A DNA stretch of 64,000 nucleotides from contig JASTWF010000034.1 of NCBI GenBank assembly GCA_030390025.1, positions 4,712,001 through 4,776,000 on the forward strand, read 5' to 3'. The notes under the pieces are model-generated. The model did not search any database, had not been told where the DNA came from, and saw nothing but the letters and a program-made list of their open reading frames with translations. How positions within the stretch are numbered: the first letter of the stretch is position 1; every line of letters starts with the position of its first letter. A program made the position numbers and the translations under genes. This document shows positions 690-50,490 of this stretch, one piece after another. The DNA comes from Squalus acanthias (lineage: Eukaryota).

Positions 690-919
690 TGTTCCAGCCT
701 GGATGGTGTGTGACATGAAGTTGGAACTTGGTTGTGATGTTGTTTTGTGCGACAGTCCGAGCCGAACTCTAACCCCTCCCTGTGCCCCTTGATGCCAATA
801 GTAGAAATTCACCTTTGACCCTGGGGATGAGACATACTTACGGTAAAATACTAAATACAAACAAAGTAACGTTTGGCATTTTCGGGATGCAAATCCTTTA
901 CTGGACACTTGGCAATGTG

Positions 920-1065
920 TTGGGGCTCAACACGGGGATGAGAATTATAAAATCAAAGCATTGCCGGACCGGGAGCCAATGTAGGTCAGCGAGCACAGGG
1001 GTGATGGATGAACGGGACTTGATGCGAGTTAGGACACGGACAGCAGAGTTTCGGATGAGACAGAA
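920..1065 (-). mobile_element. L2-clade LINE ORF2 C-terminal fragment
   Basis: Translates NSAVRVLTRIKSRSSITPVLADLHWLPV, the typical L2 C-terminal motif. Related copies lie at 30908-31282 and 56690-56925. Confidence 0.75.
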
Positions 1066-30049: not shown

Positions 30050-30905
30050 AGTGCTGTACTTGCCCTGGGAGCATTTGATTGGGACAGTGCAGATAACTTT
30101 AATCTTTATATAACCCGTACTATTATTGCCCGGGGAATATTTGATGTGGCAGTGCAGACGGAGCTTTACTTTGCATCCCGGGTGTTTGGGTATTGGGCCC
30201 CTCCACCAGCTCCAGCTCACTGTGCGAACTATGAATTTAATTGCGAAGGATCTTACAGATCGCTGCGCGGCCAAGAACCTTCCAGGGAACATTGCTCAGC
30301 AGGTCAGGCAGCATCTGTGGAGAGAGAAACTGAGTCAATGTTTCAGGTCGATGACCTTTCATCAGAAATGGAAAATGTTACTGATGTAACAGATTTTAAA
30401 CAAGTACAGAGGCAGGGAAAAGAGGGTATGGGAGGAAAGAACAAAAGGGAAGGTCTTGCTGTACCTGCCCTGGCTGTGTTTGGTGGGATTGGGTAGTGGG
30501 AGCTTTGCTCGTGCTGTACTTGCCTTGGGAGAAATTAATGGCACAGTGCAGAGGGAGATTTACCCGTTACCTAACAGGTGCTGCACCTGCCGTGTAAATG
30601 TTTGGTGAGGCAGTGTCGAAGTAGCTTTTAACTGTAATTAACCCATACTGTACCTGCACTTGGAGTATTTAATGGGGACAATGAAGAGCGAAATTTACTC
30701 TGTATCTATCGTGTGCTGTACCTGCCCTTGGAGTGTTTAATATGACTGTGTAGAAGGAGCTTTACACTTTATCTAACTGATGCTATACCTGCCCTGGGAG
30801 TGATTGATGGGGCAGTGAAGAGGGACTTTTACTCTTTATCTAACCCGTGGTGTACCTGCCTGTGAGTGTTTGATGTGACAGTGCAGAGTGAGATTTACTT
30901 TGTAT
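30050..30905 (+). repeat. 67-bp satellite, degenerate array (+ orientation)
   Basis: Diverged copies of GTGTTTGATGGGACAGTGTAGAGGGAGCTTTACTCTGTATCTAACCCGTGCTGTACCTGCCCTGGGA. Confidence 0.75.
30180..30455 (-). mobile_element. Penelope-like element 3' fragment with hammerhead-type core
   Basis: Minus strand TTCTGATGAAAGGTCATCGACCTGAAACATTGACTCAGTTTCTCTCTCCACAGATGCTGCCTGACCTGCTGAG. Confidence 0.65.
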
Positions 30906-30907
30906 CT

Positions 30908-31282
30908 CCATGTCCGTCCCTACCTCAGCTCATCTGCTGCTGATACCCTCAAATATGCCTTTGTTATCTCTGGACTTGACTATTCCAATGCACACCTAAC
31001 TGGCCCCAGATCTTTCACCCTCCATAAACTTAAGCTTAACCAAAACTCTGCTGCCATATCCTAACTCGCACCAAGTCCCGGTCACCCAACACTCCTGTGC
31101 TTGCTGACCTACACTGGCTCCCGGTCCAGCAACGCTTCAATTTGAAAATTCTCATCTTTGTTTTCAAATCCCTCCACGCTCTCTCCCTCCCGATCTCTCT
31201 AACCTCCTCCAACCCTACAACCCTCCGAGATATCTGCACCCCTCCAATTCTGGCCTCTTGAGCATCCCTGATTTTAATCTCT
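30908..31282 (+). mobile_element. L2-clade LINE 3' fragment
   Basis: AFVISGLDYSNA...QNSAAI.LTRTKSRSPNTPVLADLHWLPV.QRFNLKILIFVFKSLH. Confidence 0.85.
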
Positions 31283-31789
31283 CTTGCGGCTATATTTTTA
31301 TCTTTATTCCCCCATCTCTCTCTTTCTTTTAATCTCTTTCTGCAGCTGTAACTCTCTGTATATCTTTCTACTTCTTTTCTTGATCGCTGTCTATGTATTT
31401 CTCACTATCTGCGTTCTGGTCCCCAGTTTCTCTCACTGGTTCTCTGGGAATTTGGGAGTGATGAAATGTAAGAATGAAAGATGCTTTATTTAAATTTGGG
31501 GAGACAGGCGGTGAGGGTCCCTGGTTACATTTGGGGCCAGTGGGATACAAACGCAGGCTGTACAGTCAAAGAGGCGTGTCCTGTATCTCTACAGCTTTCT
31601 TTATTTCTCTGTATCTCTCCCTCTCTGTATATCTCTGAACCTCACTCTTTATGTGGCTCTCTGTATATGAATCTCTATTTATCTGTTTCTTGCTTTATAT
31701 GTCTGTATCTCTCTATACCTTTCCTTCATCTCTTTATAATTCTTTATTTGTTGAAATCTCTACATCTCTCACTTTGAATTTCCCTCGAC

Positions 31790-32750
31790 GCTATCCCATA
31801 AAACACTCCCAGGGCAGGTACAGCACGGGTAATATACAGAGCAAAGCTCCCTCTAAACTGTCCAACCAAACACTCACAGGGCAGGTACAGCACGGGATAG
31901 ATACAGAGTAAAGCTCTCTCTGCACTGTCCCATCAAGCAATCCCAGGGCAGGTACAGCACAGGTTAGATACAGAGTAAAGCTCTCGCTACACTGCCCCAT
32001 CAAACAAGCCCAGGGCAGGTACAGCACAGGTTAGATACAGAGGAAAACAAATTCTGCACTGTCCCATCAAACACTCCCAGGTCAGGTACAGTAAGTGTTA
32101 GATACAGATTAAAAATCCCTCTACACTGTCCCATCAAAAACATTCAGAGGGCAGGTACACCACGGGATTAGTTACAGAGCAAAACTCTCTCTGCATTGTC
32201 CCATTAAACACTCAGAGGGCAGGTACAACATGGGATTAGATACAGAGTAAAACTATTTCTACACTGTCATTTCAAACACTCCCAGGGCAGGTACAGCACG
32301 GGATTAGATACAGAGTAAAGCTCTCTCTACACTGTCCCATCAAACACTCCCAGGGCAGGTACAGCACGGGATAGATACAGAGTAAAGCTCTCTCCGCACT
32401 GTCCCATCAAACAAGCCCAGGGCAGGTACAGCACAGGTTAGATACAGAGTAAAGCAAATTCTGCACCGTCCCATCAAACACTCCCAGGTCAGGTACAGTA
32501 CGTGTTAGATACAGATTAAAACTCCCTCTACACTGTCCCATCAACAACATTCAGAGGGCAGGTACACCACGGGATTAGTTACAGAGCAAAACTCTCTCTG
32601 CATTGTCCCATTAAACACTCAGAGGGCAGTTACAACACGGGATTAGATACAGAGTAAAACTCATTCTACACTGTCATTTCAAACACTCCCAGGGCAGGTA
32701 CAGCACGGGATTAGATACAGAGCAACGCTCCCTCCACACTGTCTCATCAA
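31790..32750 (-). repeat. 67-bp satellite array (- orientation)
   Basis: CCCATCAAACACTCCCAGGGCAGGTACAGCACGGGTTAGATACAGAGTAAAGCTC units. Confidence 0.95.
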
Positions 32751-32751
32751 A

Positions 32752-35700
32752 GACTCGCAGGTAAATCCGTGCTATACCTGCCCTGAGAGTATGGTGCAAG
32801 GGGGAGGGATTCAAATTCCTGGGACATTGGAACCGGTTCTGGGGGAGGTGGGACCAGTACAAACCGGACGGTCTGCACCTGGGCAGGGCCGGGACCGCTG
32901 TCCCAAGGGGAGTGTTTGCTAGTGCTGTTGGGGAGGATTTAAACTAATGTGGCAGGGGGTTGGGAACCTGACCAGCGAGACAGAGGAAAGCATGTCAGGA
33001 AGGGACAGAAGGTATGGAGTAAAAGGTAAAGTGTTAAATAAGGAAAAAGCAGGAAGTAAGTGTCGCAAAACACCTTTGAAAGTTCTTTATCTGAATGCAC
33101 GTAGCATTCGTAACAAAATTGACGAGTTAACGGCACAAATAACTATGTATGGGTATGATCTTGTGGCCATTACAGAAACATGGCTGTAGGGTGACAACGT
33201 CTGGGAATTAAATATGCCAGGGTATTTAACAATCAGGAAGGACAGGCTATGTTAATAAAGGAAGGAATCACTGTAATACAGAGAAATGATATTGGGTCAA
33301 AAGATCAGGATAATGAAACAGTTTGGGTAGAGATAAGGAATAATAAGGGGAAAAAAACACTGGTGGGCGTAGTATATAGGCCTCCTAATAGTTGCAACTC
33401 TGTTGGAAGAAGTATTAATAAGGAAATAGTTGGGGCATGTAATAAGGGAACAGCTATAATTATGGGTGATTTTAACTATCATATTAACTGGACAAATCAA
33501 ATTGGGCAGGGCAGCCTTGAGGAAGAGTTTATTGAGTGTCTTAGGGATGGATTTCTTGAGCAGTATGTAACTGATCCCACAAGGGGGCAAGCAACCTTGG
33601 ACATGGTACTGTGTAATGAGTCAGGATTAATTAATAATGTCCTAGCTAAGGATCCCCTTGGAATGAGTGACCATAACATGGTTGAATTAGAGGGTGAGAA
33701 GGTTGGTTCTCAAACAAGCATGCTGAGCTTGAATAAAGGAGACTATGATAGTATGAGAGCAGAATTGATTAAAGTGGACTGGGAAAATAGATTAAAGGGT
33801 AAGACGGTACTTGAGCAGTGGTGTTCATTCAAGGAGTTATTTTACAACTTTCAAAATAAATATATTCCACTGAGGAAAAAAGGGTGTCAAAGAAATGACA
33901 GCCATCCATGGCTAAGTAAAGAAATTAAAGAAAGTATCCAACTAAAAAGAAGGACATATAAGGTAGCCAAAGTTAGTGGGAGGATAGAAGATTGGAAAGT
34001 CTTCAAAAGACAATAAAAAGTAACTAAAGGATTGATTAAGAAAGGGAAAATAGACTATGAAAATAAATTAGCAAAAAATATAAAAACAGATAGCAAGAGT
34101 TTCTATAGTTATATAAAAAGAAAAAGGGTGGTTAAGGCAAACGTAGGTCCCTTAGAGGATGAGACCGGGAAATTAATGGTGGGAAACATGGAGATGGCAA
34201 AAATGCTGAACAAATATTTTGTTTCAGTCTTTACGGTAGAGGACACTAAGAATATCCCAACACTGGACAAACAGGGGGCTCTAGTGGGGGAGCAGCTAAA
34301 TACGATTAAAATCACTAAGGAATTGGTACTCAGTAAAATAATGGGACTCAAGGCAGATAAATCCCCTGGACCTGATGGCTTACATCCTAGGGTCTTGAGG
34401 GAAGTGGCAGTAGGAATTGTGGATGCTTTGGTAATAATTTTCCAAAACTCCCTGAACTCAGCAAAGGTCCTGGCAGATTGGAAAACTGCTAATGTAACAC
34501 CCTTATTTAAAAAGGGTTGTAGGCAGAAGGCTGGAAATTATAGACCAGTTAGCGTATCATCTGTGGTGGGTAAAATTTTGGAGTCTATTATTAAGGAGAC
34601 AGTAACGGAACATTTAGATAAACATAATTTAATAGGACAAAGTCAGCATGGCTTTATGAAGGGGAAGTCATGTCTGACAAATTTGCTCGAGTTCTTTGAG
34701 GACAAAACGTACAGGGTGGATAAAGGGGAACCAGTGGATGTAGTGTATTTAGACTTCCAGAAGGCATTCGACAAGGTGCCACATAAAGATTATTACTCAA
34801 GATAAAAAATCACTGGATTGCAGGTAATATTCTGACATGGGTGGAGGATTGGTTATCTAACAGGAAGCAGAGAGTTGGGATAAATGGTTCATTCTCGGAC
34901 TGGCAACCAGTAGCCAGTGGTGTTCCGCAGGGGTCGGTGCTGGGTCCCCAACTCTTTACAATCTATATTAACGATTTGGAGGAGGGGACCGAGTGTAACA
35001 TATCAACTTTTGCAGATGATACAAAGATGGGAGGGAAAGTATAGAGTGAGGAGGACATAAAAAACCTACAAGGGGATATAGACAGGCTGGATGAGTGGGC
35101 AGAGATTTGGCAGATGCAATACAATTTTGGATAATGTGAGGTTATGCACTTTGGCAGGAAAAATCTGAGAGCAAGTTATTATCTTAATGGCGAGAAATTG
35201 GAAAGTACTGCAGTACAAAGGGATCTGGGGGTCTTGGTGCAAGAAAATCAAAAAGTTAGTAGGCAGGTGCAGCAGGTGATCAAGAAAGCCAATGGAATGT
35301 TGGCTTTTATTGCTAGTGGGATAGAATATAAAAACAGGGAGGTATTGCTGCAGTTGTATAGGGTATTGGTGAGACCGCACCTGGAGTACTGTATACAGTT
35401 TTGGTGTCCATACTTAAGAAAAGACATACTTGCTCTCGAGGCAGTACACAGAAGGTTCACTCGGTTAATTCCGGGGTTGAGGGGGTGGACATATGAGGAG
35501 AGGTTGAGTAGATTGGTTCTCTACTCATTGGAGTTATGAAGAATGAGAGGCGATCTTATTGAAACATATAAGATTGTGAAGGGGCTTGATCGGGTGGACG
35601 CGGTGAGGATGTTCCCAATGATGGGTGAAACTAGAACTAGGGGACATAATCTTAGAATAAGGGGCTGCTCTTTCAAAACTGAGATGAGGAGAAACTTTTT

Positions 35701-36048: not shown

Positions 36049-37525
36049 ATGATGGGAGGACTGTGTGCAGGAAGCTTTACTCTGCATCTAACCCGTGCAG
36101 TACCTACCTTGGGAGTGAATTTTTAAAAGGGAACTATTCACCCCTTTCTGATACCGTACCTGTTTGTCCCGTGTGTGTCGTCTCAGTGTCAGCTCCTGTA
36201 CGTGTATCATTAAACATTGATTAAAAGGAACTATTCACTCTCATCTGGTACTGTACTGCCCGTATGTCTCCACGCTGCTTCTCTCTCCCTGGCAACTGTC
36301 TGAGGCTGCACCTGTCCTGTGAGTGTTTGATTGAAGAATGGGAAGGGAGCTTTACTCTGTATCTAAAACGTGCTGTACCTGCCTGGGAGTGTTTCATGGA
36401 ATAGTTTACAGGGAGCTTTGCTCTGTTACTAGCCTGTGCTGTACCTGCCCTCGGAGTTGTTGATGGGACGGTGTAGCGAGTGCTTTACTTTCTATCTAAC
36501 CGGTGCTGTAACTGCTGTGGGAATGTTTGATGGGACAGTGTACATGGAACGTTACCCACTAGCTAACCCATGCCGTAACTACCTGGGAGCGTTTGATGGG
36601 ACAGTTTTGTAGGAGCTTTAACCTGTATCTAACCCGTGCTGTACCTGCCCTGGGAGTGTTTGATGGGACAGTGGAGAGGGAGCTTTACTCTGTATCTAAC
36701 CCGTGCTGTACCTGCCCTGGGAGTGTTTGATGGGACAGTGTAGAGGGAGCTTTAGTCTGTGTCTAACCCGTGATGTACCTGCCATGGGAGTGATTAATGG
36801 GACAGGGTAGAGCGAGCTTTACTTCTGTATCTAACCCGTTCTGTACCTGCCCTGGGAGTGTTTGATGGGAAAGTGTAGAGGGAGCTTTACTCTGTATCTA
36901 ACCCGTGCTGTACCTGCCCTGGGAGTGTTTGATGGGGCAGTGTAGAGCGTGCTTTACACTTTATCTAACCCGTGCTGTACCTGTCCTGGGAGTGTTTGAT
37001 GGGACAGTGTGGAGACGGCTTTACACTGTATCTAACCCGTGCTGTACCTGCCCTGGGAGTGTTTGATGGGACAGTGTAGCGGGAGCTTTACTCTGTATCT
37101 AACCCGTGCTGTACCTTGCCTGGGAGTGTTTGATGGGACAGTGTAGAGGGAGGTTACTCTGTATCTAACCCGTGCTGTACCTGCCCTGGGAGTGTTTGAT
37201 GGGGCAGTGTAGAGCGTGCTTTACCCTTTATCTAACCTGTGCTGTACCTGCCCTGGCAGTGTTTGATGGGGAGTATAGGTGAAATTTTACTCAGTATGTA
37301 ACCTTTGCTGTACCTGGCCTGGGAGTGTTTTATGAGACAGTGTAGAGGGAGGTTACTCTGTATCTAACCCGTGCTGTACCTGCCCTGGGAGTGTTTGATG
37401 GGCCAGTGTAGAGGGAGCTTTACTCTGTATCTAACCCGTGCTGTTCCTGCCCTGGGAGTGTTTGATGGGGCAGTGTAGAGCGTGCTTTACCCTTTATCTA
37501 TCCCGTGCTGTACCTGCCCCGGGAG
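36049..37525 (+). repeat. 67-bp satellite array (+ orientation)
   Basis: Period 67 (TGATGGGACA at 36661 and 36728). Confidence 0.95.
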
Positions 37526-37669
37526 CGTTTTTCTAAAATGGAACGATTCAGACCCGTCTGATACCATACTGACCGTGTTTGTCACAATGTCAGCTCCTGG
37601 ACATCTACAGTTGACATTTGGTAAAATGGTACTTGTCACTCTCAATGTTCCCTCTACGCTGCATACTCT

Positions 37670-38015: not shown

Positions 38016-38838
38016 CCTTTGTATCTAAACTGTGCCATACCTGTCCTGGGAGAATTTGTTGGAGCGATGTATAACTGGTGCTAAATAGCCCTGGACTGTT
38101 TGATGGGGACCGTGTCGATCGAACACCACGTTGTTTCCATCCAGTGCTGTACCTGTCCTGGGAGTGCTTGATGTGAAAGCGTCGAGGGAGCTTTACTTTG
38201 TATCTAACCGGTGCTGCAGCTGATGGGTGCAATGTAGAAGGAGCTTTATTCTTTGTCTAACTGGTGCTATACCTGCCTTGGGTGTGTTTGATACACTGTA
38301 GAGCGAACTTCACTCTTTATCTGTAATGAAGTAACCAGGGATAATCATATATTGGATCTAATATTTAGAAGTGAGCCTGACCTCGTATCGGGTCTCCATG
38401 TGGGGGAACATCTGGTCAACAGTGACCACAGCATTCTACGGTTCCAACTGGAAATAAAACTGAAGGTACTGAGAACCTGCAACTCGTACCAGATTTCAGA
38501 AGAGCAAACCTCACCAAAATGGCAGATGATTTGGAACGGGTAAATTGGCTAATGAGACCGATGTAGAATATAAATGGAAAGTTTTTAAGAATAAGATAAA
38601 AAATGTGGAAAACAAATGTGTGCCCAAATTCAAAAGAAGGAAATATGGTAAGAAAAGGCCAAGGTGGCTGACTGGTTCATGGAAAAAAAGACTTTAGACA
38701 ACTGTGGGAGCAATGGGGAAAGCTTTTTCAGTTGTGAAGAGTCGGAGAATTACTAAAGTCTTCAACCTTGAAGATGATGTTCAACTATTAGAATTTAAAA
38801 ATGTTTCTAACCAAACCTGTATTAACATAGATGCACAG

Positions 38839-39032
38839 TGTCGTAAGAATGAGCCTTATGCGTGGTGAACTTAAAGTAAGCTTTAATCAACTAAAAAGGT
38901 GCTACATACAAAAGAGGTCTTAATCTATGCCTCTCCAGGATCCAACTGATCAGTCCAGTATTTATCCTGGACTAATCACAGGAAGTGATGCAATAAAGTT
39001 CGAGTGACAGGAAGCTGTATTGTGATACCACA
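38839..39032 (-). repeat. 3' LTR
   Basis: TGTGG...CGACA on the minus strand, preceded by the PPT. Confidence 0.95.
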
Positions 39033-39050
39033 TTCTCCCCCCCCAAAAGA

Positions 39051-42000
39051 TTAGGAGGCCGGGATGCTCCCTCCATTTCGTAGCCGCCGGACGAGGGAGA
39101 GCCGCACCCGTTTGGGTTCTCGTAGCGGTAGAGGGCCCCTAGCCCGTTTACCCGCCGCGGGCCGTGGACCAGAGTCCGAGTGATCCAGCCCGCTCTGTGA
39201 GGGGTCAGGACGATCCTGACTGTGTACTGGTGCCCGAACGGGTGTCGGGCAGGGCTGTGGCAGATCCGTTTCCGAGCGTACGGTACGGGGTGGATCGTGG
39301 CTGCGCGTGCGAGCCCCGACGGGCTCATAGTCAGTCTGCCCCAGGTCGGCACGCTGGAGTGAGGTACCAGCCGGCGTCAGATCCAGATTGTGATGAGAGG
39401 CACCTGGCGAGCCCAGAGATGTGCCTGGTACAATATCATCCCCTGGTGTCCCTCTATGTTTCGGCGGGCAGGGAGCCAGATCCCGCAATGACACGGTAGA
39501 TTCCCGACCGTCAGGATACCGAATATAGGCGTAGGTAGGGTTGACGTCAGTGAGCTCAACCTCATCTACCAGGGGGTCATTCTTAGACGCCCGGACATAT
39601 CTTCGGAGTAGCACTGGTCCCGGTGCAGTCAGCCACGACGGGAGAGATATCCCATAGGATGAGCGACGCTGAAATCGGAAGAACCGTTCATGAGGCGTCG
39701 TATTTGTGGCGGTCGAAAGGAGGGACCGTGTGGAGTGTAATGCGTCTGGAAGTACTGCTTCCCATTGCTGGTTGGGTAGGCCCCGAGATCTCAAAGCCAG
39801 ACGTACCGCATTCCAGATGATAGCGTTAAAACGCTCGACTTGCCCATTCCCGACCGGATGATAAGGCGTCGTTCTGCTGGCAGCAATACCCCGTTCCGAG
39901 AGATAGGCCTTGAGTTCTCCTGACATAAAAGAAGGGCCCCGATCCGAATGAACAAAGGATGCCATGCCACAGAAAGCAAACACCTGCTCAAGGCAGCTGA
40001 TAACCGTGGTCGTCAGCATATTGGGGCAGGGAAAGGCAAACGGAAAACGGGAATACTCATCGACCATGGTCAATAGATAAGTGTTGCGAGTTGAAGAGGG
40101 CAATGGCCCCTTAAAATCGATGCTAAGCCGTTGCATTGGCTGGGTCGCATGTATGAGTATACCACCCGAGGGGCGGAAAAACTGAGGTTTCAATTCCGCA
40201 CAGACTCTGCAGTCCGAGCACATCTTCTTTACATCCCCGGTAGAGAATGGGAGATTTCGGGACCGCACGAAGTGTAGCATGCGAGTAACGCCCGGATGAC
40301 ACAACCCATCATGGATGTCTACGAGCGTAGAGGGTGCCATGGCGGAGCAGAATGCTCGTGTGAGGGTATCCGGAGCCACATTCTCCTTGCCAGGTCGATA
40401 GTGGATGGTGTAACCAAAAGAGGCCAATTCCAGCCGCCAAAGCTGGATTTTATTATTTTTAATTTTGGTCCGTTTACGATTATCGAGCATGAAGGCGAAC
40501 GATCGCTGGTCCGTGATTAAGGTAAAGTGCTGGCGAGCTAGGAGATGACTCCACTTCCGTACTGCCTCTATGATGGCTGTAGCTTCTTTCTCGACTGGAG
40601 GATAATGTAGCTCAGCCCCTTGAAAAGTCCTGGACAAAAATGCCACCGGACGACCTTCCTGATTCAGAGTGGCCGAGATCGCCACCTCCGAGGCATCACA
40701 CTCAACAACAAAAGGAAGACTCTCATCGATGGAGTGAAGAGCCGCTTTCTCCAACTGTTTTTTCAGGAGGTTAAAGGCTGCAACAGCCGCTGTGTCTAGT
40801 GGGAATGTGCTGGCCTTCAGTAGAGGTTGGATTCGGTCCGAGAAGTTAGGAATCCATTTAGCATAGTATGCAAACAGGCCGAGGGCCCGGCGCAAGGAGG
40901 CCGGATTCTTAGGTGGCGGGAGTTCTTGGAGTGGGCGAAGCCTTTCAGGGTCAGGTTTAATGATGCCATTGCCCACACAATAGCCAAGGATGTTGATGGT
41001 TGGTTGTGACTCAATGGATTTAGCCGCATTTAATGTCAAATTACGGTGCTGGAGTGCATCCCAAAATCGTTGGAGATTGGCGTCATGTTCCCGCTGATTC
41101 CGACCTGCGACAGTAATATTGTCCAGATAAGGAAACGTATCCTTCAAGTCTTCCTGTTTGACCAGGTCATCCATTGCTCGCTGGAAGACAGCCACTCCAT
41201 TAGTGACCCCAAAGGGGAGGCGACGAAATTGATACAGCCGTCCATTGGCTTCAAAGGCCGTATACTGCTTGTCAGAGACCTTCAAGGGTACCTGATGATA
41301 GGCACTTTTCAGATCATATGTTGAGAACACCATGTACTCAGCCAGTTTATTAACCATATCATCGATGCGCGGCAATGGGTATGCGTCCAAGTCCGTATAT
41401 TGATTGATGGTCTGTGAATAGTCAATGCACAGCCGTTTCTTGTGAGGTTGTAGAGGGTTCTTAACAATAACGACCTGGGCACGCCATGGCGACGAACAAG
41501 ACTCGATGATATCCTCTGCTAAAAGCCGAGAAATCTCAGCCGCAATAAAAGACCGGTCTTCCTGACTGAAACGTCGTGACTTTGTTATAATCGGTTTGCA
41601 TCGAGGAGGGATACTGGTAAACAGTGAAGGTTCATCCAGTGAAGCTGCTGACAATGCACAGAACGGTAATCGAGGTCGTATATTAGAAATAGTGAGTTCA
41701 GGTTTGGATCCGCCGAACTCAATGGTGAGCTTCTTATGCTGCTTTTGAAAATCCAGCCCTAAGATAAGATCACTACATAAGTCCTTGAGCACCGAAAGCC
41801 AGGTGGAGGGATACCTGTGACCATTAAGTGTTATTTCAACCATACAAAAGCCAGAAATTCTGGTATTAAGTGATGACTGAGCCATCGCAATTGCCTGGTC
41901 CGATGGGAAAACATGTAGCTTTAACTCTGCAACAATCTGTTCCCTAATGAAACTATCAGTGCTACCTGAGTCAATTAAGGCATCTAAAGTATGTCCATTA

Positions 42001-43007
42001 ATTGATGCTTTTGTAGCTGCATGGAATAGGTTCTGAGGACAAGCAGCTGTAATTGGTGTCGTTGCACAAAGAGTGGCTGAAACTCTAGGTGTGTTTCTTC
42101 GAGAGAAAACCCGAGAGGAAGCACGATAGATTTTAGCCGGAACATCTTGATAGGTCCTTACCGGGGCAGTTCGGTAGGACTTAGCTTGATAAGCCCTCGT
42201 AGAGGCTCTTGATAGGCAAACCTTTGCAAAATGACCCTTTTTGTTGCAATGACTGCAAAACGCATTGCGAGCAGGGCAGAATTTCCGAGGGTGAAACTCA
42301 TCACCACAAAAGAAGCATTTCTTAGATTGCCAAGAGGCTGCCACAGTGGGGTCATCATCCTCTTCATCAGTGAAGTCATCAGATTGATCGTCAGGGATAA
42401 AGTCCTCCCTAATAGAGTTCACCTGTGGCCTCTTAAATTGCCTGACTGTAGTTAAGGCAGCAGACCGAGGTCTGGGCACTGTATAAAGGTCTGCATTTCT
42501 TTTTGCCAGATCTAGAGAGCAAGCCATGTCATAAGCTCTCTGAAGCTCAAGTGTCTTACTTTCCAGTAGACGCTGGCGTATAAATGGGGAGGCAAGCCCG
42601 CAGATGAAAGCATCACGGATCATTTCTTCACGGTACAGCTCAGCTGAGGCCGCCTGAAAGTTACAGTCCATACTAAGTCTGCGAAGCTCTTGGAGGAATT
42701 TATCAATGGATTCCTCCGGCCCTTGTTGGGCTGTAGCTAGTAGATGTCTGGCATAGACCTCATTCGGTGTCTTAGTATATAGCCTTTTAAGCGTCCGAAT
42801 TGCCTTCTCGTAACTGCCCCATTCCTCCACATACTGAAATACATTCGGGGTGACACAGTTGATGAGTATCCGCAACTTTGAGTCATCATCAGCCTTGCAA
42901 TATTCGAGAAAATTGTCAAACGTGCGATACCAGTGTTTCCACACCTTACCGGCTGCTGGGGTGTTTGGGTCCAAGTCAAGACGCGATGGTTTAAGGATGT
43001 TTTCCAT
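39051..43007 (-). CDS. gag-pol: intact single-ORF Gag-Pol polyprotein (Gag zinc knuckles, protease, RT, RNase H, integrase), 1318 aa
   Basis: CFFCG..HPRKFC / CSHCNKKGHFAKVC; LIDSGS; RLCIDY, DLKSAYHQ, LPFG, YLDN; CDAS, EKEA, TDQ; H-H-C-C, IDFKG, SDRG, NGQVERFN. Domain order PR-RT-RH-IN. Confidence 0.96.
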   Translation of the reverse strand: MENILKPSRLDLDPNTPAAGKVWKHWYRTFDNFLEYCKADDDSKLRILINCVTPNVFQYVEEWGSYEKAIRTLKRLYTKTPNEVYARHLLATAQQGPEESIDKFLQELRRLSMDCNFQAASAELYREEMIRDAFICGLASPFIRQRLLESKTLELQRAYDMACSLDLAKRNADLYTVPRPRSAALTTVRQFKRPQVNSIREDFIPDDQSDDFTDEEDDDPTVAASWQSKKCFFCGDEFHPRKFCPARNAFCSHCNKKGHFAKVCLSRASTRAYQAKSYRTAPVRTYQDVPAKIYRASSRVFSRRNTPRVSATLCATTPITAACPQNLFHAATKASINGHTLDALIDSGSTDSFIREQIVAELKLHVFPSDQAIAMAQSSLNTRISGFCMVEITLNGHRYPSTWLSVLKDLCSDLILGLDFQKQHKKLTIEFGGSKPELTISNIRPRLPFCALSAASLDEPSLFTSIPPRCKPIITKSRRFSQEDRSFIAAEISRLLAEDIIESCSSPWRAQVVIVKNPLQPHKKRLCIDYSQTINQYTDLDAYPLPRIDDMVNKLAEYMVFSTYDLKSAYHQVPLKVSDKQYTAFEANGRLYQFRRLPFGVTNGVAVFQRAMDDLVKQEDLKDTFPYLDNITVAGRNQREHDANLQRFWDALQHRNLTLNAAKSIESQPTINILGYCVGNGIIKPDPERLRPLQELPPPKNPASLRRALGLFAYYAKWIPNFSDRIQPLLKASTFPLDTAAVAAFNLLKKQLEKAALHSIDESLPFVVECDASEVAISATLNQEGRPVAFLSRTFQGAELHYPPVEKEATAIIEAVRKWSHLLARQHFTLITDQRSFAFMLDNRKRTKIKNNKIQLWRLELASFGYTIHYRPGKENVAPDTLTRAFCSAMAPSTLVDIHDGLCHPGVTRMLHFVRSRNLPFSTGDVKKMCSDCRVCAELKPQFFRPSGGILIHATQPMQRLSIDFKGPLPSSTRNTYLLTMVDEYSRFPFAFPCPNMLTTTVISCLEQVFAFCGMASFVHSDRGPSFMSGELKAYLSERGIAASRTTPYHPVGNGQVERFNAIIWNAVRLALRSRGLPNQQWEAVLPDALHSTRSLLSTATNTTPHERFFRFQRRSSYGISLPSWLTAPGPVLLRRYVRASKNDPLVDEVELTDVNPTYAYIRYPDGRESTVSLRDLAPCPPKHRGTPGDDIVPGTSLGSPGASHHNLDLTPAGTSLQRADLGQTDYEPVGARTRSHDPPRTVRSETDLPQPCPTPVRAPVHSQDRPDPSQSGLDHSDSGPRPAAGKRARGPLPLREPKRVRLSLVRRLRNGGSIPAS

Positions 43008-43085
43008 GATGGGTGATTCCCTGGATCCTTAGTTCCGAGTTCGTCTAAAAAGTTTGAGTGCGAAGTTTTTCAAAGTTGATTAAAT

Positions 43086-43279
43086 TGTCGTAAGAATGAG
43101 CCTTACGCGTGGTGAACTTAAAGTAAGCTTTAATCAACTAAAAAGGTGCTACATACAAAAGAGGTCTTACTCTATGCCTCTCCAGGATCCAACTGATCAG
43201 TCCAGTATTTATCCTGGACTAATCACAGGAAGTGATGCAATAAAGTTCGAGTCACAGGAAGCTGTATTGTGTTACCAAA
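43086..43279 (-). repeat. 5' LTR
   Basis: Direct repeat of 38839-39032; the terminal TG is mutated to TT. Confidence 0.95.
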
Positions 43280-45024
43280 CACAGATTGTTTTAGAAATAA
43301 TTAAGAACTTGAAAATAGATGGAGCAGCCGGGCCGGATGGTATCCACTCGACAGTCCTCAGGGAGATGGGGCATGTGCTTTGCTGGACCCGAGCCTGTAT
43401 TTTTAAAACCTTACTGCACTCTGGAATGGTTCCTGTAGACTGCAAGGAGGCTAATGTAGTCCACATCGTTACAAAAGGTGACAAGACAGACCCGGGTAAG
43501 TATAGGCCCATTAGTTTAACATCAGTAATAGGTAATATGCTTGAAGGAATCATTAAGGATGCAATATATGAATACTTGGATAGAGAGGGTCATATTAGGG
43601 ACACCCAACATGACTTCATAACAAGGCGGTCATGTCTTACAAATCTAATTGTATTTTTGAAGAAGTTACAAAGTTGGTGGATAAGGTACCGCATAAGAGG
43701 CTTCTCTATAAGATCAAATACTCTGGTATTAGTGGTAATATATTGAGCTGGATTCAGAACTGGATGGCAGGACGTAGGCAAAAAAGTAGTTATAGATGGA
43801 TTGGGAACTGTTTGGAGACCGTTCATCAGTGGTGTCCCACAGGGATCAGTGTTGGGAGTGTTGCGCTTTACTATTTTTATTAATGATCTGGATGTAGGTG
43901 TTGGGGGCACAATCTGAAAATTTGCAGATGATACCAAGAATTGTGCGAGTGTTAGAACTGTAGATGATGATCGTCCGCTTCAGCCAGATCTTAATCTGTT
44001 GGGTGATTGGTCTCAAGACTGGAAAATGATGTATAACTTAAATACGTGCAGTGTTATGCATGTGGGAAGGGCAAATGCTAAACATTCATACACCCTTCAG
44101 GGAAAGGCATTACAGATAGTGCATACATCCTTAAAGGTACATGAGCAAAGCTGTGCAGCGATAGCTAGAGCAAATAGGGTGTTGGGGCGTATCCATAGGA
44201 CAATCGAGTACAGGGCGAGGCATACTGTTTTTCCTTGTAAAGGACATTAGTCAGGCCACACTTGAAATATTGTGCCCAGTTTTGATCTCCTCACATGGTG
44301 GGTGATATTGAGGCTTTGGAAAGGGTACAGAGGAGGAGCCACTAGACTAATTCCCAGTGTAAAGTGTCTTAGTTATCAAGAAAGGCTAAAAGGGTTGGGA
44401 TGTTCTACCTTAGAGAAGCGTAGACTTAGCGGAGATCTGATTGAGGTTTATAAGTTAATGAAGGGAATAGATTTTGTACCAGCTGGCAGTTTATTTCAAT
44501 TAGGCAGGACCAGGGCTCACTAACTGAAGTTGTATGAGTCTACATCTAGATTAGATGTCAGGAGGTGGTTCGTTTCCCAGACAGGCTGCCTACTCATGTG
44601 GTGAATGCGGAACGCTGAATTCCTTGAAGCGAGAGCTGGACCTGCTTCTGGCTGGGGCGGAGATCACCTCTTACAGAAGGCAGGTACGGAGGGGAATTCA
44701 GGGCCAGAGTGATCTCCTGGATTAGTTTCCATTGCCTAGATGGGTTAGAGAGGAATTTCCCTGGTTTATTTTCCCCAAATTGGCCTGCGTTTTTCGCCTC
44801 TCCCAGGATATCACATGGTTTCAGGTGGGGTGGAGCGTATATGTTGTGATACACAAGGGACCTCAATTGTGTGGGACAGGCTCGATGGACCAAATGGTCT
44901 TTAATTGTCCGTCAATGTTTATATGTGTGTCCTATCCCGTGCTTTACCTGCCCTGGGAGTGTTTGATGGGACTGTGTAGAGGGAGATTTACCCTTTATCT
45001 AACCCATGTTGTACCGCCCCTAAC

Positions 45025-47183: not shown

Positions 47184-47554
47184 ATCTTCCTCCGCAGTGG
47201 ACAAACTGAGGCCTTCACACTGAGGCTGCACCCAATGGGCCCACGTGAGTTTGTATCTGTTTATTACCCCGGGGTTTCATTTCCTGTCGCGGAACCTGAG
47301 TTTCTGGTGCCTCGTGTTAACTTGTTCCTGTTGGCTGCGGCCCTTGAGTTTTAAAGAAGTTTAAAGCCTAGTGTTAATGTAACCCTGGCCTTGCAATGTG
47401 ACAGAATCACGTTAACCCGCGGAGCGAGACAGAGAGAGCCCCCACCCCGAGTGGAAATTAAAGTTAGCAACGTGAACCTGTGGAAAGCTTGTTATAATTC
47501 CATGTAATGCTTCTGTTTCCGGGCAATGTGATGAATTTGATGGTTAAGTTATAT

Positions 47555-47760
47555 GCACGGTGGCCATTTTAAGTGATATCTATCCGTGGCGAGCTTTTTA
47601 AATGATATCTATCTGTGGTGGCCATTTTAAATGATATCTATCCGTGGCGGGCATTTTAAGTGATATCTATCCGTGGCGTGCATTTTAAGTGACAGCTATT
47701 CGTGGCAGTGATTTCATTCGACATCCGTAGTGGCAATTTTAAGTAATATGCGCGGTGGCC
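47555..47760. repeat. ~29-bp GCCATTTT-containing tandem repeat, copy 1
   Basis: Unit GGCCATTTTAAGTGATATCTATCCGTGGC. Confidence 0.8.
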
Positions 47761-47764
47761 AGAA

Positions 47765-48620
47765 AACAGAGGGGCACTTGTTACAGAGTCCGACTCCACA
47801 CTGGGAGAGACACAGTGTACACAGGGACACTTCTTACAGGGTCTGACTCCACACTGGGAGAGACACAGTGTACACAGGGACACTTCTTACAGGGTCTGAC
47901 TCCACACTGGGAGCGACACACTGTACACAGGGACACTTCTTACAGAGTCTGACTCCACAATGGGAGAGACACACTGTACACAGGGCACTTCTTACAGAGT
48001 CTGACTCCACAATGGGAGACACACACACTGTACACAGGGCACTTCTTACAGAGTCTGACTCCACAATGGGAGAGACACACTGTACACAGGGACACTTCTT
48101 ACAGAGTCTGACTCCACAATGGGAGACACACACACTGTACACAGGGCACTTCTTACAGAGTCTGACTCCACAATGGGAGAGACACACTGTACACAGGAAC
48201 ACTTGTTACAGAGTCTGACTCCACAATGGGAGAGACACACTGTACACAGGGCACTTCTTACAGACTCTGACTCCACAATGGGAGACACACTTACTGTACA
48301 CAGGGACACTTCTTACAGAGTCTGACTCCACAATGGGAGACACACACACTGTACACAGGGACACTTCTTACAGAGTCTGACTCCACAATGGGAGACACAC
48401 ACACTGTACACAGGGACACTTCTTACAGAGTCTGACTCCACACTGGAAGCGACACACTGTACACAGGGACACTTGTTACAGAGTCCGACTCCACACTGGG
48501 AGAGATACACTGTACACAGGGACACTTCTTACAGAGCCCGACTCCACACCAGCAGAGACTCACACTTAATACAGGGACACTTGTTACAGCGTCCGACTCC
48601 ACACTGGGAGAGACACTGGG
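47765..48620. repeat. 53-55-bp minisatellite, array 1
   Basis: Unit GTACACAGGGACACTTCTTACAGAGTCTGACTCCACACTGGGAGAGACACACT. Confidence 0.95.
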
Positions 48621-48814
48621 AGAGCCTAGGTTTAAAGTAGCCCTGGCCTTCCAATGTGACACAAACACGTTAACCTGTGGTGCGGGAGAGAGATGCTCCC
48701 CACCGCGAGTGGAAATTAAAGTTATCAACGTGAACCTGTGTAAAGGCTTGTTTTAATTCTAGAATAATGCTTCTGTTTCCGTGAAGAGCGATGAATTTGA
48801 CGATTCAATGATAT

Positions 48815-49095
48815 GCACGGTGGTTTTTTAAGTGATATCTACTAGTGGCGGCCATTTAAAGAGGTATCTGTCTACGGCAGCCATTTTAAGCGTTATCCAT
48901 CTCCGTGGCCATTTTAAGTGATAGCTATCTGTGGCGGCCATTTTAAGTGACATCTACTCGTGGCAGCGATTTTATGTGATATCCGTGGCGGCTATTTTAT
49001 GTAAGAAGTACGCCGGCCATTTTAAGTGATATGAGCGGCGGCCATTTTAAGTGACACGGGCTCGGGCCATTTTAATGAATATGTGCGGCGGGCAT
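48815..49095. repeat. ~29-bp GCCATTTT-containing tandem repeat, copy 2
   Basis: Repeated GGCGGCCATTTTAAGTGA. Confidence 0.8.
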
Positions 49096-49119
49096 GTTCA
49101 TTATTATGCGCGACAGCCA

Positions 49120-50490
49120 GTTTACACAGGGACACTTGCTCCAGATTCCGACTCCACACTGTACACAGGGACACTTGTTACAGAGTCCGACTCCACACTG
49201 GCAGAGACACATACTGTACACAGTGACACTTGTCACAGAGTCCGACTACACACTGGGAGAGACACAAAGTGTACACAGTGACACTTGTTACAGAGTCCGA
49301 CTCCACACAGGCAGAGACACATACTGTACACAGTGACACTTGTCACAGACTCCGACTACACACTGGGAGAGACACAAAGTGTACACAGTGACACTTGTCA
49401 CAGAGTCCGACTACACACTGGGAGAGACACATACTGTACACAGTGACACTTGTCACAGACTCCGACTACACACTGGGAGAGACACAAAGTGGACACAGTG
49501 ACACTTGTCACAGAGTCCGACTACACACTGGGAGAGACACAAAGTGTACACAGTGACACTTGTCACAGAGTCCGACTACACACTGGGAGAGACACAAAGT
49601 GTACACAGTGACACTTGTTACAGAGTCCGACTCCACACAGGCAGAGACACATACTGTACACAGTGACACTTGTCACATACTCCGACTACACACTGGGAGA
49701 GACACAAAGTGTACACAGTGACACTTGTTACAGAGTCCGACTACACACTGGGAGAGACACATACTGTACACAGTGACACTTGTCACAGAGTCCGACTACA
49801 CACTGGGAGAGACACAAAGTGTACACAGTGACACTTGTCACAGAGTCCGACTACACACTGGGAGAGACACAAAGTGTACACAGTGACACTTGTTACAGAG
49901 TCCGACTCCACACAGGCAGAGACACATACTGTACACAGTGACACTTGTTACAGAGTCCGACTACACACTGGGAGAGACACACATTTTATACAGTGACACT
50001 TGTTACAGAGTCCGACTCCACACCATCAGAGACTCACACTGTACACAGGGACACTTGTTACAGAGCCCGACTCCACACTGGGAGAGACACACTGTACACA
50101 GGGACACTTGTTACAGAGTCAGACTCCACATTGGGAGAGGCACACACTGTACACAGGGACACTTCTTACAGAGTCCGACTCCACATTGGGAGAGGCACAC
50201 ACTGTACACAGGGACACTTCTTACAGAGTCCGACTCCCCACTTGGAGAGACACAGACTGTACACAGGGACACTTCTTACAGAGTCCGACTCCCCACTTGG
50301 AGAGACACAGACTGTACACAGGGACACTTCTTACAGAGTCCGACTCCACACTGGGAGAGACACAGACTGTACACAGGGACTCTTGTTACAGAGTCCGACT
50401 CCCCACTTGGAGAGACACAGACTGTACACAGGGACACTTCTTACAGAGTCCGACTCCCCACTTGGAGAGGCACAGACTGTACACAGAGAA
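49120..50490. repeat. 53-55-bp minisatellite, array 2
   Basis: Same family as 47765-48620. Confidence 0.95.

Follow-up and report, generated by a model that had tools for sequence, protein, structure and literature searches.

Self-priming of reverse transcription tends to be regarded as peculiar to the Tf1/sushi chromoviruses and to a handful of fungal and plant lineages. For Tf1, the relevant passages of the literature report that the RNA's first 11 bases pair with the primer-binding site and that RNase H cuts between bases 11 and 12 (PMC7175516); in similar excerpts, Tj1 and Tf2 are described as self-priming likewise (PMC4600332, PMC5341516). Passages of three papers give predicted self-primers from vertebrates and fungi in the Tf1/sushi group (sushi-ichi, Maggy, Skippy, Cft-1, Boty and Grasshopper), together with the Tcn1 clade of fungi and mosses (PMC6317226, PMC6934838, PMC4600332). 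The plant Ty1/copia TAR lineage (Houba, Osr-1) is also predicted, in the part of the source drawn on here, to self-prime from a tRNA-independent site complementary to its own LTR (PMC6317226).

Here we describe a Ty3/Gypsy LTR retrotransposon in the window, by which we mean the whole 64-kb stretch of DNA that was analysed (Table 1). The element most likely primes reverse transcription on its own RNA in the manner of Tf1. A preliminary description of this DNA had proposed self-priming in place of a tRNA primer, and the proposal gains support from relatives in which the pairing is kept while its letters change.

Table 1 Coordinates of the element and of its self-complementary site in the window
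Feature	Position	Strand	Evidence
Complete Ty3/Gypsy LTR retrotransposon, 4,441 bp	43279-38839	-	LTR pair and 5-bp target duplication
Target-site duplication CTGTG, upstream copy	43280..43284	-	Same 5-mer at both element flanks
5' LTR, 194 nt; begins TT (3' copy: TG), ends CA	43086..43279	-	189/194 identity to 3' LTR
TATA-like GATAAATA inside 5' LTR, 74 nt upstream of primer partner	43206..43213	-	
Candidate self-primer AGTTGATTAAA, 5' arm of duplex; contains ATTAAA	43129..43139	-	Covaries with post-LTR site in relatives
Small hairpin GCTTA-CTT-TAAGT, directly 3' of 5' arm	43116..43128	-	Minimum-energy fold
Second hairpin CGTAAGG-CTCAT-TCTTACG in U5-like tail (U5-IR-like position)	43089..43107	-	7-bp stem in minimum-energy and centroid structures
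Single spacer A between LTR end (CA) and primer-binding site	43085	-	CAA before 3' arm in nearly all aligned relatives
Putative primer-binding site TTTAATCAACT, 3' arm of duplex	43074..43084	-	Exact complement of LTR stretch
Single open gag-pol frame, 1,318 aa	39051..43007	-	
Domains of gag-pol (residues): two CCHC knuckles 231-264, protease 333-420, RT 523-676, RNase H 742-864, integrase 894-1051			
Polypurine tract GGGGGGGGAGAA, abuts 3' LTR	39033..39044	-	
3' LTR, 194 nt; second AGTTGATTAAA at 38892-38882, no complementary site downstream	38839..39032	-	
Target-site duplication CTGTG, downstream copy	38834..38838	-	

The LTR pair and the 5-bp target duplication set the LTR boundaries independently of the duplex. 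The two LTRs (194 nt each) differ at five positions, and the element is full-length and apparently functional. Its protein follows the Ty3/Gypsy domain order PR-RT-RNase H-IN, and the best solved relatives of that protein are Ty3 Gag-Pol (E 8e-58) and Ty3 RT (E 9e-51). The double zinc knuckle noted earlier in Gag corresponds to the two CCHC knuckles at residues 231-264. The earlier remark that no chromodomain was seen extends to the clade: with a limit of E <= 0.01, neither the window protein nor any of 30 proteins from the clade matched a chromodomain family (0/30).

The element is inserted in a LINE-like remnant on the plus strand (window 38352-38838 and 43285-44523), where the flanking plus-strand frames resemble a non-LTR reverse transcriptase, one of them giving a weak RVT_1 match (E 3.7e-5) below the Pfam cut-off. 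Three satellite-like tandem arrays in the window, at 30540-32780 (unit ~67-68 nt), 36265-37625 (67 nt) and 47365-49950 (29/53/55 nt), are unrelated to the Gypsy element.

On the minus strand, the 5' LTR ends ...TCTTACGACA at 43086 and is followed by A at 43085 and by TTTAATCAACT at 43084-43074. The site after the LTR reads A-TTTAATCAACT, so there is no TGG-type tRNA start. TTTAATCAACT is the exact reverse complement of AGTTGATTAAA at 43139-43129, which occupies LTR positions 141-151 of 194. The self-complementary site is real: the perfect 11-nt match to the element's own LTR, as first described, lies where it had been placed, and its LTR partner contains the ATTAAA that had been noted. The spacing of ~65 nt given earlier from the TATA-like motif to the partner amounts to 74 nt from the first base of the motif and 67 from its last. 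Pairing in the window covers exactly 11 bp, with mismatches at the neighbouring bases on either side. The minimum-energy structure of an 80-nt RNA (43139-43060) includes the 11-bp stem; its energy is -15.4 kcal/mol (z = -2.85), a value reached by none of 200 shuffles. The stem closes a 44-nt loop that holds two hairpins (43128-43116 and 43107-43089).

A protein search of the host genome assembly (3.7 Gb) returned at least 35 places that are 99-100% identical, 33 of which are free of stops. These 35 near-identical places, which include the window copy, indicate a young and numerous family. For a check of pairing within the family, 30 loci were cut and 29 could be anchored; the perfect pair was identical in 28 of these 29, and in the remaining copy a C-to-T change in the primer site leaves a G-U pair. 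LTR-leader junctions were identical in all eight DNA-search matches, the window's own among them. The host genome also carries two sister families of the same clade, L123-L125 (G000:C10, C28, C25) with a duplex of 13 bp and L126 (G000:C6) with one of 12 bp, and one sister family occupies dozens of places with open frames of ~1,315 aa. All three host families, and one family of an unrelated assembly, have the core AGTTGATTAAA in common. Because family copies are alike and the sister families share this 11-mer, comparison of the family copies and the two sister families gave no covariation signal inside the host genome, and the evidence for covariation comes from more distant relatives.

When summed contig depth was compared in runs X1 and X5, depth over the LTR (43036-43330) in X1 was ~3-4x that over the coding region (39084-42883). 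This exceeds the expectation of two LTRs per element and suggests many solo LTRs.

The window protein has 1,397 relatives among 8,000 scored candidates, with 46-89% identity among the 120 matches listed. Named sources among the listed relatives were shrimp, tunicate, soft coral, sea anemone, copepod and whipworm; the protein names ('uncharacterized protein') were uninformative for lineage. We scanned metagenome contigs with an alignment of 30 relative proteins and obtained 603 candidate stretches; a relative is encoded by 526 of them, and 80 loci were retained. The gag N-terminus is contained in 45 of the 80 loci, and 39 have at least 150 nt upstream; with the window, these gave a set of 40 upstream regions, each of at least 150 nt before gag.

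We scored as a duplex any perfect inverted pair of at least 11 bp with a loop of 20-90 nt that ended no more than 100 nt from gag. A perfect duplex of 11-19 bp was found in the same place in 35 of the 40 upstream regions; of 1,600 mononucleotide shuffles of these regions, only 2 yielded a perfect stem of at least 11 bp. Clustering at 80% identity reduced the 40 regions to 24 sequence clusters, and the duplex was present in 22. The exceptions comprise the near misses L094 and L108 (one mismatch each) and L090 (a degraded copy whose site has suffered a deletion), and a single cluster of two loci, L073 and L074, with no recognisable 5' LTR. Upstream sequence was too short for the duplex search in L044, L092 and L095; in L054 and L071, which also have short upstream parts, the pair is visible across permuted contig ends. 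The L054 locus fills its whole contig (4,046 nt), which starts just past the 3' end of its own first arm and ends at the arm. This contig break coincides with the cut site proposed below, and may be an accident of assembly.

The position of the duplex relative to the LTR is as constant as its presence. On contigs bearing both LTRs, the LTR end (CA) is followed by one A and then at once by the second arm, and in relatives this arm begins directly after CAA. The junction end of the duplex is fixed, with the first arm nearly always ending ...AAA, then G/A-C-C, and the outer end varies, giving lengths of 11-19 bp. A TGG-type site occurs in none of the 35 duplex-bearing regions and in none of the 22 cluster representatives; relatives with a normal TGG site, which the preliminary description had named as evidence that would count against self-priming, are thus absent among the 35. 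In 24 of 26 families or variants, the minimum-energy fold contains all or nearly all of the duplex, and the rows of the other two (L087 and L123) were cut one base out of register. By a strict criterion, 15 of the 26 have a hairpin (4 bp or longer) that begins 0-1 nt past the first arm. LTRs are 194 nt long in the window and 150-300 nt in relatives.

The arms diverge widely among families (for example, TTTATTCGACTAGAAAT, TCTTCAAAACTTAAT, TTTTAACAGCTTAGAATC, TTTATTACGCGTAAAC and ATGTCAAAATATT), and each has its match in the element's own LTR; between clusters, the 11-mer partner of one was found in the upstream region of another in only 4 of 462 cross comparisons. We measured covariation on a MAFFT alignment (A3) of 28 distinct rows with a 19-pair helix imposed, in which L113 and L117, misaligned at the right end, were kept and count against the structure. 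Pairing held in 84.7% of A3 cells; shuffles gave 64.0%, and sliding the partner by 1-3 columns gave 28-46%. Cells changed on both sides numbered 109, versus 37.7 expected, and none of 500 shuffles of A3 reached any of five covariation measures. RNAalifold predicted 13 of the same pairs on A3 unaided, with compensatory change at 12 of the 13. Compensatory change in relatives was the test that the preliminary description had proposed, and both the double-change cells (109 versus 37.7) and the RNAalifold pairs (12/13) bear it out; loss of complementarity with divergence, named there as a refutation, is not what the relatives show, as pairing is kept while the letters change. Related sequences can beat shuffles without any structure, an objection answered only in part by the slid-partner control and by matched double changes between close variants (L048/L066, L059/L060 and L082/L089). 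The anatomy of the element, the exact geometry of the site, the conservation of pairing and its covariation are direct observations over about two dozen families.

An LTR ends, by definition, where minus-strand synthesis begins, so any primer has to anneal to the bases that open the second arm. Because the start of the second arm varies by family and always matches the family's own LTR, we read the first arm as a Tf1-style self-primer. In the proposed scheme, AGTTGATTAAA in the genomic RNA (43139-43129) would fold over the 44-nt loop and pair with TTTAATCAACT, and the RNase H of the element would cleave this RNA past 43129, where the first arm has its 3' end (...TTAAA). Synthesis from the freed 3'-OH would first copy the spacer A (43085) and next the LTR tail, back to 43128; such an extension would account for the LTR ending where it does. 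The resulting minus-strand DNA of ~45 nt would jump to the identical stretch of the 3' LTR (38881 onwards). Plus-strand synthesis would finally copy the RNA primer and so rewrite the primer site in every cycle, which would explain both the near-universal perfection of the arms and the origin of the double changes; this rewriting follows from the general scheme of LTR-element replication. We infer each biochemical step, from the RNA duplex in vivo through cleavage and priming to the position of the transcription start.

Where transcription starts would decide between a primer made of the leading 11 nt of the RNA, as in Tf1, and one formed by the tail of a longer 5' fragment. Arguments for a primer at the 5' end are the sharp outer edge of the pairing, the sequence TTAGTT around 43139, which resembles an initiator, and the unmatched tail that a long primer would leave, complicating plus-strand transfer. 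Arguments against are the TATA-like motif 74 nt upstream in the window, a clear GTATAAATAC TATA box ~90 nt upstream of the partner in both sister families (L123-125 and L126), and, in many relatives, pairing that extends 2-8 nt past the conserved AG that would be +1. The sister-family boxes were recognized by eye; the MAFFT alignment of the host families left the TATA motifs out of register. Inspection of the relatives' upstream regions revealed no consistent TATA motif at about -30 from the 5' arm. If the TATA-like motif and the TATA boxes drive transcription, the partner would lie 35-60 nt inside the RNA, unlike in Tf1; the sister-family boxes thus keep alive the earlier idea of an internal primer within the R region.

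Upstream of the first arm by ~25-30 nt, a block AGACCTC / AGATCTC is kept in all three host families, although the remaining U3 differs (given for the window 43108-43122 region and for L123/L126); it could be a core-promoter element.

We also sought RNA data. The sole raw-read RNA run yielded no reads, and the other three runs consist of contigs, which are uninformative on RNA ends; two of these are of a guessed kind with depth in the hundreds (probably DNA), and the third, a metatranscriptome contig run, gave three low-depth pieces within the coding region. No poly(A) runs after the hexamer were found in the 80 metagenome loci scanned.

Because the 5' arm usually holds a poly(A) hexamer, the duplex may keep this signal hidden at the RNA's 5' end. 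No complementary site lies downstream of the 3' LTR copy, which would leave its own poly(A) signal free. Masking of the 5' signal may thus be an added role of the duplex; it is not universal, as no more than 14 of 26 families or variants carry a canonical AATAAA or ATTAAA in the first arm. HIV-1 is a familiar case of hairpins hiding a 5' poly(A) signal. The hexamer in those 14 also speaks for a different reading, that the duplex is an RNA structure and nothing else (for poly(A) masking, packaging or dimerisation, or control of gag translation) and that another primer is used. So does the closeness of the 3' arm to the gag start (13-49 nt in relatives, 67 nt in the window). We consider this reading improbable. 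It leaves unexplained why the 3' arm starts one base past the LTR end in essentially every family, and no alternative primer site is visible between LTR and gag; in L045, L052 and L065, the arm nearly fills the space between the LTR and the ATG. Moreover, the arms of L046 and L117 pair although they lack a poly(A)-like hexamer.

Even less likely is a host-derived RNA primer (an internal tRNA fragment or some different small RNA), with the LTR match being secondary. The core AGTTGATTAAA shared by the three host families and the family of an unrelated assembly could mean a conserved host partner, and half-tRNA primers are described for some copia lineages in an excerpt of PMC6317226. However, the sites differ widely between families (TCTTCAAAAC..., TTTATTACGCG..., ATGTCAAAAT... 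and TTTTAACAGC...), always matching their own LTR, even within one assembly (contigs WLWD01...), which has at least three families with different sites; it is this variation that makes a host-RNA primer unlikely. No site starts TGG, and the longest complement to a tRNA was 6 nt, in a comparison with 20 loci (of 63 genome matches scored) that covers tRNA-Lys(UUU) and tRNA-Cys(GCA) only and is too small to exclude a tRNA fragment. We found no tRNA genes within the 64-kb window. Host tRNA genes occur in tandem arrays with a period of ~1.78 kb (G000:C2208:413928-426494, C29:13254729-13265435 and C1484:21788-27198), and the array members retrieved are tRNA-Lys(UUU).

Chance complementarity in an A+T-rich leader, suggested by arms that are A+T-rich and, in the window, merely 11 bp long, can be dismissed with near certainty given the shuffles (at least 11 bp in 2/1,600 versus 35/40 observed), the fixed position and the covariation.

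The self-priming architecture appears here as the rule in a large animal clade without chromodomains, with the duplex in 22 of 24 clusters and textbook covariation. As a joint proposal, which we put forward tentatively and hold to be rather doubtful in its full form, a widespread metazoan branch of chromodomain-less Gypsy elements (probably Mag C/SURL) gave up tRNA primers in favour of one excised from its own transcript precisely at the poly(A) hexamer, this primer being internal in the TATA-box families. If this is true, the branch spans cnidarians, crustaceans and tunicates through to the window's host, and one short duplex does three jobs: it defines the LTR end, supplies the primer and hides the 5' poly(A) signal. 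At least in families with an upstream TATA box, the primer would then sit at the end of a capped 5' fragment longer than the first 11 bases, and the mechanism would be a variant of that of Tf1. A testable link between the choice of primer and the control of the poly(A) site is raised. Annotation pipelines that seek tRNA-type sites have reason to miss or mis-bound such elements, for which the duplex offers a simple signature, and the many near-identical, uninterrupted copies provide an animal system for studying RNase H cutting of an RNA duplex.

SURL elements are those of sea urchins, and Jule of fish, with a single gag-pol frame and two zinc knuckles, belongs to the Mag family. The window element resembles the Mag C clade in its short LTRs (194 nt in the window), a metazoan host range that includes vertebrates, a single gag-pol frame and two knuckles. 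The Mag C (SURL) clade has been described (PMC3601003, PMC6238403, in part); the portion of PMC3601003 used here gives LTRs averaging 174 nt in the Mag C training set, with the ends TGTNATRT ... AYANAACA. Set against this consensus (from the same portion of PMC3601003), the window LTR ends match at 7/8 positions in TGTGGTAT and 6/8 in TTACGACA; LTR ends of relatives read ATACAACA, CTACAACA and TCATAACA. These likenesses, drawn from published descriptions, are at most suggestive of a Mag-C/SURL-like, chromodomain-less, metazoan lineage. In the full-text articles searched, no statement was found that Mag or SURL-type elements self-prime.

The closest mechanistic counterparts are Tf1 and Tf2 of Schizosaccharomyces pombe and Tj1 of S. 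japonicus. As far as the consulted excerpts on them go, they share with the window element the lack of a tRNA site and a post-LTR site that complements the element's own LTR-derived RNA; the window duplex has the same 11 bp as that of Tf1, and stem-loops lie between the arms in both. Tf1 has gag and pol in one open frame, as does the window element. Unlike Tf1, Tf2 and Tj1, the window element has an animal host and no chromodomain, and the duplex in its clade is 11-19 bp long; its 5' arm usually holds a poly(A) hexamer, with a TATA-like motif 74 nt upstream. Tf1, Tf2 and Tj1 have been studied experimentally, whereas self-priming of the window element is proposed here from sequence. For the Tf1/sushi group and Tcn1, self-priming was predicted from sequence, at least in the passages of the sources used, which is the same approach as that taken for the window clade. 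Both groups are chromoviruses, and by the chromodomain the window clade falls outside them (0/30 proteins). The TAR lineage differs in superfamily (copia gene order) and in its plant hosts. We therefore see in the window element a known mechanism in a lineage for which we found no prior report, although an earlier description may exist. Its particulars, a primer that overlaps the poly(A) hexamer and possibly lies inside the RNA, would make it a variant of that mechanism if confirmed.
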